Positions 38,619 through 64,000 of a stretch of DNA of 64,000 nucleotides are shown here, in pieces. Position 1 is the first letter of the stretch; each line of letters opens with the position of its first letter. The stretch lies in the NCBI GenBank assembly GCA_963730935.1, contig CAVSTP010000003.1:480001-544000 (forward strand), written 5' to 3'. The notes below the pieces were generated by a model. The model was not told the DNA's origin, did no database searches, and saw only the letters and a list, made by a program, of their open reading frames with translations. Made by a program: the position numbers and the translations under genes. The stretch comes from an uncultured Nitrospiraceae bacterium (GTDB lineage Bacteria > Nitrospirota > Nitrospiria > Nitrospirales > Nitrospiraceae).

Positions 38619-39884
38619 ATGGCGATCAAACGTCCCCCGTCGCTCGCGCAACTGGAACAGGCGCTGAAGGAAAAGACCCGTGAAGTCGATGTGCTGCATC
38701 GAATCACGGATTCGATCAGCAATACCCTTGATCTGGAAGCCGTTCTCAAGCACATCGTGGAGATCGTCGTTGAAGTGACGAAAGCCGACGCCTGTCTGCT
38801 GTACTTGTTGTCCGACGGCCAAGACGAACTGATCCTCCGCGCCTCCAAAAACCCGCACCCCAAGCTGATCGGACGGATTACGATCGGCATGGGCGAGGGC
38901 ATCACCGGGTGGGTGGCCCAAGAGCGCACGCGCGTCGTCATCCCCAGCAATGCCAGCGACGACCCCAGGTTCAAATTCTTCCACAATCTCCCAGAGGACC
39001 GGCATCAGGCCTTCGTGTCGGTCCCGATCATGGCCAAGAAGGAAGTGGTCGGCGTGATCAATGTGCAGCACAAACGTCCCAAGCGATACCGGCCGGATGA
39101 GCTGGCGTTGCTCTCGACCATCGCCAATCAAGTGGGAGGGGCGATCGAAAACGCGCGGCTGTATGAGCAGATGCGGCGCAAGGCCTTGCAGGTCGAGACC
39201 CTGTCACAGGTATCGGAAACGGTTGCCTCCAGCCGCTTGATCGAAGACGTGCTGCAGCTTCTGGTTACGATGACGGCTCAAGTGATGAATTCAAAGATCT
39301 GCTCGATCATGCTGCTGGACGAGACGACCGGAGATCTCCACATCGAGGCCACCCAGAGCCTGAGCGAACACTACCGGCGAAAGCCGAACCTGAAAATTGG
39401 TCAGAGCGTGAGCGGACGCGCGGTGCAGGAGCGCCGGCCGATCATCGTCGGTGATGTGACGAAGGAGCAGGACTACATGTATCCGGACATGGCGAAGAAA
39501 GAAGGCCTCTGTTCGCTCCTGTCCGTGCCCATGATGGTCCGTGAAAAGGCGGTGGGCGTCATCAACAGCTACACATCGGTGCCTCACGCCTTTACAAGTG
39601 AGGAGGTCAAGCTCCTGCAGGCAATCGCCAATCAAGCCGCGATCGCGATCGAGCACACGAATCTCCTGGAAAAGTCATTCGAAATGCAGGAGGCCTTGGC
39701 GGTTCGCAAATTACTCGAGCGGGCGAAGGGGTATCTGATGCGGGCCAAGAAGCTGACCGAAGAAGAGGCCTTCAAGCTGATTCAACGGCAAAGCATGGAT
39801 CTTCGAAAATCGATGCGGGAGATCGCGGAGGCCGTGCTGCTCGCGGGCGAACTGGAAGAACGGGCGGAAAAGCAACGAGGATAG
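38619..39884 (+). CDS. GAF-GAF-ANTAR RNA-binding antiterminator
   Basis: Two GAF repeats (GEGITGWV...VPIM...GVINVQ and GQSVSGRAV...SVPMMV...GVINSY, each ending IANQ), then a C-terminal ANTAR domain RKLLERAKGYLM...EEEAFKLIQRQSMDLRKSMREIAEAVL. Confidence 0.92.
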   Translation: MAIKRPPSLAQLEQALKEKTREVDVLHRITDSISNTLDLEAVLKHIVEIVVEVTKADACLLYLLSDGQDELILRASKNPHPKLIGRITIGMGEGITGWVAQERTRVVIPSNASDDPRFKFFHNLPEDRHQAFVSVPIMAKKEVVGVINVQHKRPKRYRPDELALLSTIANQVGGAIENARLYEQMRRKALQVETLSQVSETVASSRLIEDVLQLLVTMTAQVMNSKICSIMLLDETTGDLHIEATQSLSEHYRRKPNLKIGQSVSGRAVQERRPIIVGDVTKEQDYMYPDMAKKEGLCSLLSVPMMVREKAVGVINSYTSVPHAFTSEEVKLLQAIANQAAIAIEHTNLLEKSFEMQEALAVRKLLERAKGYLMRAKKLTEEEAFKLIQRQSMDLRKSMREIAEAVLLAGELEERAEKQRG

Positions 39885-39885
39885 G

Positions 39886-40779
39886 CTACCGTTGAGGGAC
39901 GGTGTGTTGGGGCTGTGAGCGGGCGCGTTCGGCTTGTTGCTCTGCGAGCTGCTTTTTGATCTCCTGTAATTCCTTCCGCAGTGCTTCGATCTCAGCATCC
40001 TTTCGAACCGGTTCAGCGGTCCCTCCATTCGTTGCTTGAGGTGGAGCCGGCGCGGGGGACGACTTCGTCGAGGCAGGGACGCTGGAGGCCTCCGGCAACA
40101 TCGCCAGCAATTCCCAGTCAATCACCAGCGTGTGGCCGGTCGAGCGGGCACCCAGGTAGCTCTCGGGCCGTTTTGCGGCTTCGGGCAGAAACGACACTGT
40201 GCGGTTCGCTAATCCCGTCGCATCCGAGATCTTGCGGTTGGCCATGTTGATGGTTGTTGTTGGTTCCTCTCTCGAGCGATATCGGGTCAATGTGATATAG
40301 AGGGAACGACCATAGGCATACAGGGCGCCGTTCGTGGATTCACGCGGGTGAAAACTCATGAGCGGCTCGGAGCCGACGTCCGCACCGGTGTGTTCCGAGA
40401 GCCCGGGTTGCCCCACCTGCCTTACCGCAAATTCAACCTGTTGATCCGATGCCGCGCGCCTGAGACTTTCGGTGATGAGCGGCGCAAGGTAGCCGACTTC
40501 ACTCCCTGAAAACGCTCGACGGGCGTCCGCGGTTCCGACGCGATTCTGCACCGCCCCCTGATTGTCGTGAATCACGATGCCGCTCAAGGCGAGCGCGATC
40601 GTGCTCGGATCGATTTTGATCGGATGTGCGGCTTGAAATGAGCGTTCCGAGATCCGTTTCAGATAGACCGCCCCTTGAGGGGAATCGTCGATCTTGATAT
40701 CGAGCTCAGGTCCGGTAGAGCAGGCAGGAAATAGGAGTGCGACGAAGAGCGCGCTGGTTATATGACGTCGGGCCGGCAT
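39886..40779 (-). CDS. hypothetical lipoprotein, paralogue A
   Basis: Lipobox LFPA-C after a hydrophobic stretch; C-terminal coiled coil; clear similarity to the adjacent ORF. Confidence 0.8.
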   Translation of the reverse strand: MPARRHITSALFVALLFPACSTGPELDIKIDDSPQGAVYLKRISERSFQAAHPIKIDPSTIALALSGIVIHDNQGAVQNRVGTADARRAFSGSEVGYLAPLITESLRRAASDQQVEFAVRQVGQPGLSEHTGADVGSEPLMSFHPRESTNGALYAYGRSLYITLTRYRSREEPTTTINMANRKISDATGLANRTVSFLPEAAKRPESYLGARSTGHTLVIDWELLAMLPEASSVPASTKSSPAPAPPQATNGGTAEPVRKDAEIEALRKELQEIKKQLAEQQAERARSQPQHTVPQR

Positions 40780-40812
40780 GGCATCACTCGAGAGAGATAC
40801 TCTCCGCACGCA

Positions 40813-62543: not shown

Positions 62544-62607
62544 TGCTGAAAATTCACCTCCGCGTTCGGTCATGTGCGCTCCACGCCAACTCCTCTAGGG
62601 GGCACCA

Positions 62608-62946
62608 ATGAAGCTGGTCGAAGCAATCATCAAGCCGTTCAAACTCGATGAAGTGAAGGACGCGCTGTTGGAAATTGGCGTGCAAGGCATGACGGTCACC
62701 GAGGTCAAGGGATTCGGGCGTCAAAAAGGTCACAAGGAAACGTACCGCGGGCAGGAGTATACGATCGAGTTCGTCCCGAAGGTCAAAATCGAGGTGGCCG
62801 TGCAGGACGGACAAGTACCGCGCGTGCTCGAAACGATTTCCCGGGCCGCCAAGACCGGCAGCATCGGCGACGGCAAGATTTTCGTGCGTGATTTGAACGC
62901 CGCGGTCCGCATCCGCACCGGAGAAACCGGAGAGACTGCCTTGTAA
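62608..62946 (+). CDS. glnB: nitrogen regulatory protein P-II (GlnB/GlnK)
   Basis: 112 aa; KGFGRQKG, T-loop YRGQEY with Tyr51, GDGKIF, IRTGE. Confidence 0.97.
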
Positions 62947-62954
62947 TACCGACC

Positions 62955-64000
62955 ATGGAACTGGAATCCTCCTCCGCCTCCCTTTCACACACGACCAGTA
63001 TCGTCCAGGTGCTTGATGAGCATCGGGCGCTCGTGGCACGCCGCGTGATGGCCGGCGCCTCGGGCGCCGAGACGCTCGCTGCGATGACGGAATTCGTCGA
63101 CGGGTTGATCATCGGGCGGTATCGAGACGCAATGCGACAGGGCGGTGACGAAACGGCGACCGTCGGCATGCAGCAGTGCTGTCTGATGGCCTTGGGCGGC
63201 TATGGGCGGCGTGAGCTGGCGCCACAATCGGATATTGATCTGATGTTTTTGTATCAGGCAGGGTCCGGCAAACCGGTGGAATCGCTCATCCGCGCGGTGC
63301 TGCACCCACTGTGGGATTGCGGATTTCAGGTCGGGCACAGTGTCCGGACCATCGCCGACAGCATCGAGCTGGCGGAAACCGACGCAACCGTGAAGACGTC
63401 CATGATGGAAGCGCGGTTCCTGGCTGGAAGCTCGGACCTCTTTCAGGAGTTTCATCGCAAGTATTGGCGGAAGATTGTGTCCAAGAACAGCGATTTGTAC
63501 CTCGACCAGAAGCTCGAAGAGCGGCGCCGGGAGTATCAGAAATTTGGGGAGACGGTGTATCTGCTGGAGCCGAACGTCAAGAAAAGCAAGGGCGGTCTGC
63601 GGGATCTCCATCTGCTGCAATGGGCGGGCATGGCTCGCTTTCAAGCACCGACCATCCGGGAGCTTTCCGACCGAGGCATCCTTTCGCGGGCGGATTCGCT
63701 GGCGTTGACGGAAGCACGGGAATTCCTGTGGCGCGTGCGTGCGCTTCTCCACGTCCACGCGGGAGCCCCTCAAGAGATCCTCACGTTTGACGAGCAGGTC
63801 TGGCTCGCGCAGCACTTCGGCTATCACGATCAACCGCATTTGCTCGCGGTCGAGCAATTTATGCAGCAGTACTACCAGCACACGATGGGATTGCACGAGC
63901 GCTGCATGCGGTTCGTGGAACGGTGCCGCAGCGTCCCGTTCTGGCAACGCCTGTCCCGCTTTTTGCCAGCTCCTCGAGTCGACGAGTACTTTGTGGTGCG
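62955..64000 (+). CDS. glnD: [protein-PII] uridylyltransferase (3'-truncated; not in the ORF track)
   Basis: Manual translation from ATG 62955: ALGGYGRRELAPQSDIDLMFL, LWDCGFQVGHSVR, LEPNVKKSKGGLRDLH. Confidence 0.94.
   Translation, partial: MELESSSASLSHTTSIVQVLDEHRALVARRVMAGASGAETLAAMTEFVDGLIIGRYRDAMRQGGDETATVGMQQCCLMALGGYGRRELAPQSDIDLMFLYQAGSGKPVESLIRAVLHPLWDCGFQVGHSVRTIADSIELAETDATVKTSMMEARFLAGSSDLFQEFHRKYWRKIVSKNSDLYLDQKLEERRREYQKFGETVYLLEPNVKKSKGGLRDLHLLQWAGMARFQAPTIRELSDRGILSRADSLALTEAREFLWRVRALLHVHAGAPQEILTFDEQVWLAQHFGYHDQPHLLAVEQFMQQYYQHTMGLHERCMRFVERCRSVPFWQRLSRFLPAPRVDEYFVV

Follow-up and report, generated by a model that had tools for sequence, protein, structure and literature searches.

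ANTAR-domain proteins that act by antitermination at RNA leaders are known from several bacteria. In Pseudomonas, NasT/NasS works with the nirBD leader NalA, in which two hexaloops with A and G at loop positions 1 and 4 (A1/G4) precede a terminator (PMC10783516). The eut leaders of EutV/EutW in Enterococcus faecalis show the same overlap of dual hexaloops and terminator, with EutV being activated by phosphorylation and specific to ethanolamine (PMC3369931, PMC8934654). In Geobacter sulfurreducens, nitrogen genes are antiterminated by GnfK/GnfR; GnfR, a response regulator paired with a kinase and subordinate to a sigma54 master regulator, acts on nifH, and terminators were noted at glnK and amtB (PMC2995071). 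A 2020 count of characterised one-component ANTAR proteins stood at two, PAL and NasR, the latter a sensor-ANTAR protein of Klebsiella oxytoca with a nitrate-sensing NIT domain (PMC7496416). Here, we analysed a window of 64,000 nt from an uncultured Nitrospiraceae bacterium (positions 480,001 to 544,000 of contig CAVSTP010000003.1, called C3, in the 99.9% complete, 4.05-Mb genome GCA_963730935.1, called G000), which encodes a GAF-GAF-ANTAR protein and two RNA leaders of the ANTAR type, one upstream of the urea transporter genes urtABCDE and one upstream of nadE-amtB-glnB-glnD. Judging from sequence comparison, the protein is very probably the one-component antiterminator of a nitrogen-assimilation island.

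Nitrospira-type organisms are major nitrifiers. Their nitrogen-assimilation gene cluster has been described, and the parts of that study consulted name no regulator (PMC6311188). Literature searches, judged on titles and the starts of abstracts and with subscription papers mostly outside their scope, returned no description of ANTAR control in Nitrospira. As a concept, ANTAR control of amt, PII, urea and glutamine synthetase (GS) genes is not the novelty that the first-pass annotation of the window suggested: Ramesh et al. (2012) already predicted such RNAs before genes for PII, for ammonium, urea and nitrate/nitrite transporters and for GS elsewhere (PMC3369931; Nitrospira is absent from its text and the seven supplements searched), and GnfR control was shown for nitrogen-fixation genes (PMC2995071). 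The RNA core is that of a known class, the proteobacterial NasT leaders, and the mechanism is not new. What appears to be new, and is well supported by the sequence comparisons below, is a tandem-GAF one-component sensor, a family-wide nitrogen regulon and its lineage-specific loss. If true, the tandem-GAF sensor would join the two characterised one-component ANTAR proteins, and the locus supplies a candidate regulator, RNA targets and predicted 3′ ends at 41946 and 59292.

Two leaders in the window share one architecture

Both leaders lie on the forward strand and have the layout and positions given by the first-pass annotation, namely a sigma70-like promoter, hairpin 1, hairpin 2 and an overlapping intrinsic terminator with nine T. 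The promoter of leader 1 (41801–41829; TTGACA at 41801, a 17-nt spacer and TATAAG at 41824) was read from the sequence, since the promoter scan demands T at position 6 and missed it; orthologous leaders have the same layout. It is followed by hairpin 1 (41856–41869; loop AATGGG at 41860–41865) and hairpin 2 (41893–41908; loop AACGGC at 41898–41903), whose 3′ half is the 5′ arm of the terminator (41901–41946; 17 pairs in 41901–41939, then nine T to 41946). Leader 2 comprises a promoter at 59160–59189 (TTGACA at 59160, 18 nt and a TG-extended TATTCT at 59184–59189), hairpin 1 at 59204–59221 (loop AACGGA at 59210–59215), hairpin 2 at 59244–59257 (loop AACGAC at 59248–59253) and a terminator at 59251–59292 (stem 59251–59285, then nine T to 59292). 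This second terminator is absent from the 18 called by the terminator scan and was found by folding and sequence; the likely nadE start codon, 59297, lies 4 nt past it.

All four hairpins carry A1/G4 hexaloops within exact copies of GACAAYGRNGTC (41857, 41895, 59207 and 59245), on stems of 4–6 pairs. The 38-nt distance between loops holds at both sites (41860/41898 and 59210/59248) and was rejected as a family trait, as relatives range from 31 to 52 nt. The single 12-mer is weak evidence: allowing one mismatch, it matches the window 10 times against 5.7 expected, a count reached in 7 of 100 shuffles, and G000 has 24 exact copies. The tandem 12-mer pattern occurs twice in 4.05 Mb, each time at one of these leaders. 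Folding z-scores are −4.9 and −3.2 for the whole leaders 1 and 2, and −2.7 and −0.3 without the terminator. The combination of elements at the two leaders is not a product of chance.

A single GAF-GAF-ANTAR protein is the candidate reader

The ANTAR-domain gene noted before upstream of the first leader is the open reading frame (ORF) at 38619–39884 (+), which starts 4 nt after aroB and encodes the 421-aa putative antiterminator. Its domain order is GAF-GAF-coiled coil-ANTAR (ANTAR at residues 356–407, E = 9e-19), and Pfam, which reports GAF, GAF and ANTAR only, finds neither a receiver nor a NIT domain. No other protein in the whole of G000 matches ANTAR. Identity is 78–91% in the family, 67–74% in the order and ∼45% in family f23; the named homologues come from Nitrospiraceae, and clusters of look-alikes occur most often in Nitrospirota, Acidobacteriota and Elusimicrobiota. 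The RNA contacts of EutV are largely kept (PMC3369931, PMC8934654): six of the 11 compared are identical, two are conservatively replaced (K147R, Y164F) and one is NasR-like (N173D), on a mapping that assumes chain numbering equal to the paper's numbering plus 2 and fits all 11. Mapped through the motif RK..E(K/R)AK, R340, K345 and K347 of NasR would correspond to R363, R368 and K370 (PMC7496416).

The best named solved relatives of the first GAF domain (GAF1) are GAFs of PtsP/EI-Ntr (3ci6, E = 2e-23; 3trc, E = 2e-17), and the protein matches the PtsP family with E = 1e-39 and, through GAF1, NifA with E = 3e-30. The EI-Ntr GAF is glutamine-responsive and required for glutamine inhibition (PMC4848567). 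EI-Ntr differs in having a single GAF and in governing a phosphotransferase, and we take the likeness, a sequence match, as a lead rather than a ligand assignment. A structure model (predicted local distance difference test 82, predicted template modelling score 0.44, 21 alignment rows) gave generic tandem-GAF matches in Foldseek. A complex prediction of the GlnB trimer with the GAF module scored 0.00 and was used neither for nor against any reading.

Leader anatomy is conserved among relatives

A tandem-only search pattern was dropped because of a recurrent, apparently coding false positive in many genomes; loose tandem scans of the whole genome had given 68 and at least 192 candidates, mostly noise. 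All strict-leader counts below rest instead on hairpin 2 plus terminator (GGACAAHGNCGTCC-N8-45-GGRCGYYTTT; the strict signature), which does not require hairpin 1. It matches five times in G000, always inside C3:521894–551263 (29.4 kb), and the reversed control pattern gave no match in 201 genomes. From fetched class-level loci we assembled 86 distinct units (78 distinct sequences), a subset of the strict matches enriched in close relatives; 68 are first units, i.e. not second in a tandem, and 18 are second.

Hairpin 1, scored as an upstream A1/G4 hexaloop with a stem of at least 4 pairs, is present in 52 of the 68 first units, compared with a mean of 3.2 and a maximum of 10 in 500 shuffles and with 2 of 68 control windows; one of the 18 second units has its own. 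Loop-to-loop spacing in these 52 is 31–52 nt (36–44 nt in 39). The inner terminator stems, which the pattern leaves free, are better than 95% of their own shuffles in 83/86 units, and every unit has a T-rich tail (5–10 T of 10, three of them demanded by the pattern). At all five units of G000, the terminator and hairpin-2 folds are mutually exclusive, the terminator being 7–17 kcal/mol more stable. Both-side changes occur at five of six hairpin-1 pairs over the 52 hairpins, a partly circular figure as the set was chosen for 4 pairs. An alignment of 10 hand-picked nadE leaders has both hairpin 1 and the terminator in its consensus, 5/20 pairs being changed on both sides and two hairpin-1 pairs covarying. 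Linkers are unrelated in sequence, and no aptamer-sized conserved region was seen.

By consensus matches only, a sigma70-like motif lies upstream of 41/68 first units (5.0 in shuffles) and a sigma54-like motif upstream of none. The absence of a −24/−12 motif, reported before for the two window leaders, extends across C3:480000–585000. The leaders combine A1/G4 hexaloops, a variable stem of at least 3 pairs, terminator overlap, a position between promoter and gene and a cognate ANTAR protein, the computable criteria of the ANTAR RNA class other than a constrained distance between the hairpins, for which the range of 31–52 nt gives no clear answer. They also travel with nitrogen genes: the scan of relatives matches before amt, glnB, nirC, cynS, glnA and BBP2 porins.

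Some units depart from this layout. Two terminator units in series, the second without its own hairpin 1, precede cyanate/nitrite genes at L066:4131–4313 and in its orthologues L071, L073, L081 and L084. In families f4 and f23 (L230–L235, L302–L306), a single hexaloop/terminator stands between a sigma70-like promoter and the glnA gene that comes next, and hairpin 1 was not seen. Leaders before ORFs of unassigned function (small lipoprotein-like, DUF6733) mark candidate new nitrogen-related genes (L293:8909, L299:4829, L300:11749, L242, L243, L246).

The leaders precede genes of a nitrogen-assimilation island

The genes following leader 1 are a 471-aa secreted protein (42006–43421, +), labelled a porin by the first-pass annotation, without a Pfam or NCBIfam match and kept before urtA in relatives, and urtABCDE (43458–49423, +), five genes of a urea ATP-binding cassette (ABC) transporter that each score above the NCBIfam cut-off. 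Leader 2 is followed by nadE (59297–61069, +), an NAD synthetase with a nitrilase-type domain (Pfam/NCBIfam), amtB (61281–62543, +), Amt-type and not Rh by family matches, glnB for the PII protein (62608–62946, +; family matches) and glnD (62955–64000, +; NCBIfam), which continues past the window end. These two units are as annotated before, but the regulon was incomplete: glnA, 38 nt after the glnD stop, and three further terminator units belong to it. Downstream of glnA come an ABC system of the nitrate/cyanate type, cynS, two further amt genes and genes for a Rieske-cytochrome b-multihaem cytochrome set. Leader 3 (G000:C3:547131–547310), before the ABC genes and cynS, has its own sigma70-like promoter, hairpin 1 and two tandem hairpin/terminator units (547172, 547266). 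Leader 4 (G000:C3:551176–551270; unit 551221), before amtB2-amtB3-Rieske-cytochrome b-multihaem cytochrome c, showed no promoter by eye. The loops beyond the window include AAAGGC and AGTGTC. Relaxed terminator scans of G000 gave no convincing sixth unit. In G000, the regulon leaves out the UT transporter and ureABC, neither of which is preceded by a leader.

The RNA class is widespread

A GTDB-wide scan with the strict signature found at least 121 stretches, mostly Proteobacteria among the matches listed. There, the downstream genes include nirB, narK, nrtA-like and cysG in Proteobacteria and nadE, amt, nirC and glnB in Nitrospira (30 of 126 ORFs scanned, 18 of the 30 without an NCBIfam match at 1e-10). 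In proteobacterial NasT-type leaders, hairpin 2 (GGAC-AAHGNC-GTCC) and the terminator 3′ arm agree letter for letter with those found here, and the same hairpin-terminator core precedes nirB/narK; loop spacing in the Pseudomonas matches is ∼41 nt. Three Pseudomonadaceae matches score as Rfam P11 (RF00625; 111–132 bits), which from its position is probably NalA, and two others match narK (RF03032) below threshold. Neither model hit the window, nor, at E ≤0.5, L060. The conserved CAGGCAANGGCGCC element of Geobacter (PMC2995071) resembles hairpin 1 of leader 3.

Despite the shared RNA core, the system is not a member of the NasR/NasT or GnfR/EutV groups, having no NIT domain, no receiver and no sigma54 motif. 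Where NasT acts with NasS from NtrC/RpoN promoters, the reader here is a GAF-GAF-ANTAR protein, the promoters are sigma70-like and the targets make up a whole assimilation island; no NtrC scored over the cut-off in G000 (best 478 versus 559 bits), though many sigma54 activators are present. Unlike the two-component GnfR, the protein is a single component with sigma70-like promoters, and it has tandem GAFs in place of the NIT domain of NasR. The earlier proposal of antitermination rather than sigma54 control stands for this family, while in other families of the taxonomic class some variant leaders follow sigma54-like motifs by eye.

Other Nitrospirota families have variant leaders, some single-hairpin by eye, before glnA, amt, nirC, nitrite reductase-like and NMT1-family genes. 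Nine (L315, L318, L320, L322, L323, L325–L327, L329) follow −24/−12 motifs by eye, a two-tier layout as in NasT/GnfR. Records of Planctomycetia, Blautia, Sphaerochaeta and Selenomonas also contain the signature (L129, L158, L109, L166); the Selenomonas copy precedes amt, and for the other three a scan of 300 aa downstream gave no match to NCBIfam.

Protein and leaders are lost together

ANTAR matches were counted in 75 family genomes, with eleven further family genomes of the leader scan outside these counts. Exactly one match was found in 48 genomes and none in 27; a strict leader is present in 45/48 of the former and 1/27 of the latter. An AmtB-type transporter accompanies the ANTAR gene in 48/48 genomes and is intact in none of the 27. 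GlnD, counted only at PF08335 E ≤4.2e-35 in frames of at least 739 aa (shorter frames also matched and were taken for GlnE halves), shows 48/48 versus 2/27 (G327 and G077, the latter from a 3.4-kb contig). All 27 ANTAR-less genomes belong to genus g2, and 22 of them encode ammonia monooxygenase (AMO), for which G000 gave no match in the search that was positive in 29 of the 75 relatives. Within the 27, PF00909 matches more weakly in 24, not at all in one and as amt fragments in two; the weaker match of G104 was shown to be Rh50-like. This split agrees with the published one, in which clade A comammox have Rh, whereas clade B and canonical Nitrospira have Amt (PMC6311188); our clade labels follow from it. 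Alongside this known difference in transporters, comammox lineages would thus differ in regulation, with protein and switches lost together in one ammonia-oxidising lineage. In genus g6, seven AMO-positive genomes retain ANTAR, AmtB and GlnD.

Remnants record how the locus decayed. In four single-contig genomes (G104, G293, G189, G383), it reads aroB-nadE-glnB-glnA, contiguous and without a leader, and no leader was found before urtA in the stretches read. G327 keeps a 5′ ANTAR-gene remnant with a stop, amt fragments, an intact glnD and, elsewhere, an orphan leader whose terminator is weak, and its nadE is preceded by a promoter-like element without hairpins; in G265, remnants of amt and glnD are left. 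A glnA tree with 18 rows places the five ANTAR-less genomes that it includes in one clade (100/99), G327 branching first; the nadE tree leaves G104, on a long branch, unplaced. Because of these remnants and the single glnA clade with G327 at its base, we favour one loss with intermediates, and the co-loss of protein and leaders is probably a single evolutionary event.

In g6, strict leaders number 1, 1, 1, 1, 0, 0 and 0 in AMO-positive versus 2, 2, 2, 2 and 1 in AMO-negative genomes, which may point to a second and slower erosion. In the nadE-glnB gap of three ANTAR-less genomes (L287–L289), glnB is preceded by a shared GGGCTATGAT element that may be a new or an unmasked promoter.

Proposed mechanism and alternative explanations

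Antitermination by the ANTAR protein passed every comparative test run, covering hairpin 1, promoter motifs, co-occurrence and co-loss. In the mechanism we propose, sigma70 polymerase would initiate in each leader, and by default the terminator would fold, taking the 3′ half of hairpin 2, so that transcription halts at the U-run. Upon shortage of fixed nitrogen, the tandem GAF module would activate the protein, a dimer of which, on the A1/G4 hexaloops, would keep hairpin 2 and let polymerase continue into urt, nadE-amtB-glnB-glnD-glnA, the cyanate/nitrite genes and amtB2. Binding and read-through are proposed by analogy with EutV, NasR and NasT. Activation by nitrogen shortage is likely, provided the rest holds; that GAF1 senses glutamine or 2-oxoglutarate directly is plausible, if a little short of probable.

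Several observations weigh against this mechanism. By the 4-pair rule, 16/68 first units lack hairpin 1, including leaders before glnA in family f4, as do 17/18 second units. Loop spacing varies over 31–52 nt, though EutV lost antitermination with a 20-nt longer linker (PMC3369931, PMC8934654), and two EutV contacts are changed (R168Q, R177S). Since nadE and glnA are presumably always needed, the switch must be leaky. Three of the 48 ANTAR genomes have no strict leader (G305 narrowly misses the signature, G397 has a weak leader and G373 shows none in the stretches read). As the co-loss was probably one event, the 27 related genomes are not 27 independent tests, and it fits a reader lost with its targets and a plain deletion of neighbouring genes alike. 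For the sensor, identity to 3ci6 is 31%, GAF similarity does not fix the ligand, and in the fold search cyclic-nucleotide tandem GAFs come out on top.

What switches the protein could differ from our proposal. Some NifA proteins are under PII control, and the NifA match of GAF1 would suit a scheme with the same RNA mechanism in which PII (GlnB or GlnB-UMP) binds the GAF module and GlnD is the true nitrogen sensor. GlnD disappeared with the ANTAR gene in 25/27 genomes, with glnB retained where mapped; the loss of AmtB accounts for that of GlnD equally well, however, and the protein scores higher with PtsP than with NifA, so that we regard PII as an unlikely switch. Induction by substrate, as in NasR/NasT, with the GAFs binding nitrite, cyanate or urea to turn the island on, would agree with the hairpin-2/terminator core shared with proteobacterial nitrate-assimilation leaders, with nirC and cynS among the targets and with a single weak match (E = 1e-5) to NreA, a nitrate sensor. 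It is less likely still, as a NIT domain is absent, nitrite is always on hand for a nitrite oxidiser, the protein is conserved in families whose sole leader seen precedes glnA, and amtB, PII, GlnD and GS, all among the targets, respond to nitrogen status in other bacteria.

Other explanations concern the RNA. Site 2 and several relatives have the start codon 0–5 nt past the T-run and a GAGG in the 3′ arm, as if the large stem masked the ribosome-binding site and the hairpin chiefly governed translation, or translation and termination together. With the ribosome-binding site of site 1 lying 45 nt past the terminator and a T-rich tail on every unit, we consider this improbable. That the leaders are protein-independent attenuators or riboswitches, the ANTAR protein acting elsewhere, would accommodate the single-hairpin units, but A1/G4 hexaloops on sequence-variable stems are the ANTAR signature (PMC8934654, PMC10783516), the linkers are unrelated and no conserved region has the size of an aptamer, and the leaders went missing with the only ANTAR gene; we give this explanation very little credence.

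Antitermination by the ANTAR protein also invites a broader scenario, which we offer tentatively and hold to be rather doubtful. A master regulator of Nitrospiria that senses glutamine (or 2-oxoglutarate) directly and acts on RNA might replace NtrBC/GlnR/NtcA, its targets, even PII, GlnD and GS, being transcribed from constitutive sigma70 promoters. When clade A comammox turned to ammonia oxidation with an Rh channel, they might then have dismantled the circuit stepwise (regulator and leaders first, amtB and glnD later), so that their assimilation genes were left outside this control.

Neighbouring features

The NMT1-family protein after leader 3 was rejected, by inference, as a NasS-like sensor, as it sits with a permease and an ATPase and nirC takes its place in many relatives. 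On the reverse strand, 39886–41655 holds two lipoprotein-like genes without a Pfam match. In many relatives, their homologues sit next to the ANTAR gene or diverge from a leader; ANTAR-less genomes have them near urtA. Urease is of two types: the genes in the window (52110–57816, −) encode a UreC 96% identical to that of G210/G295, where the genes lie on the opposite strand without a leader, and ∼60% identical in other relatives, where ure often follows urtE on the same strand and would come under the urt leader. Antisense inside ureC, 56518–56818 (+) matches the Rfam 5_ureB_sRNA model (64 bits, cut-off 40), which may merely reflect similarity of urease coding sequence. Related GC-rich palindromes, by eye resembling repetitive extragenic palindromic or miniature inverted-repeat transposable elements, occupy the gaps 44823–45061 (urtA-urtB), 61070–61280 (nadE-amtB) and 49424–49904, the last with two copies after urtE.

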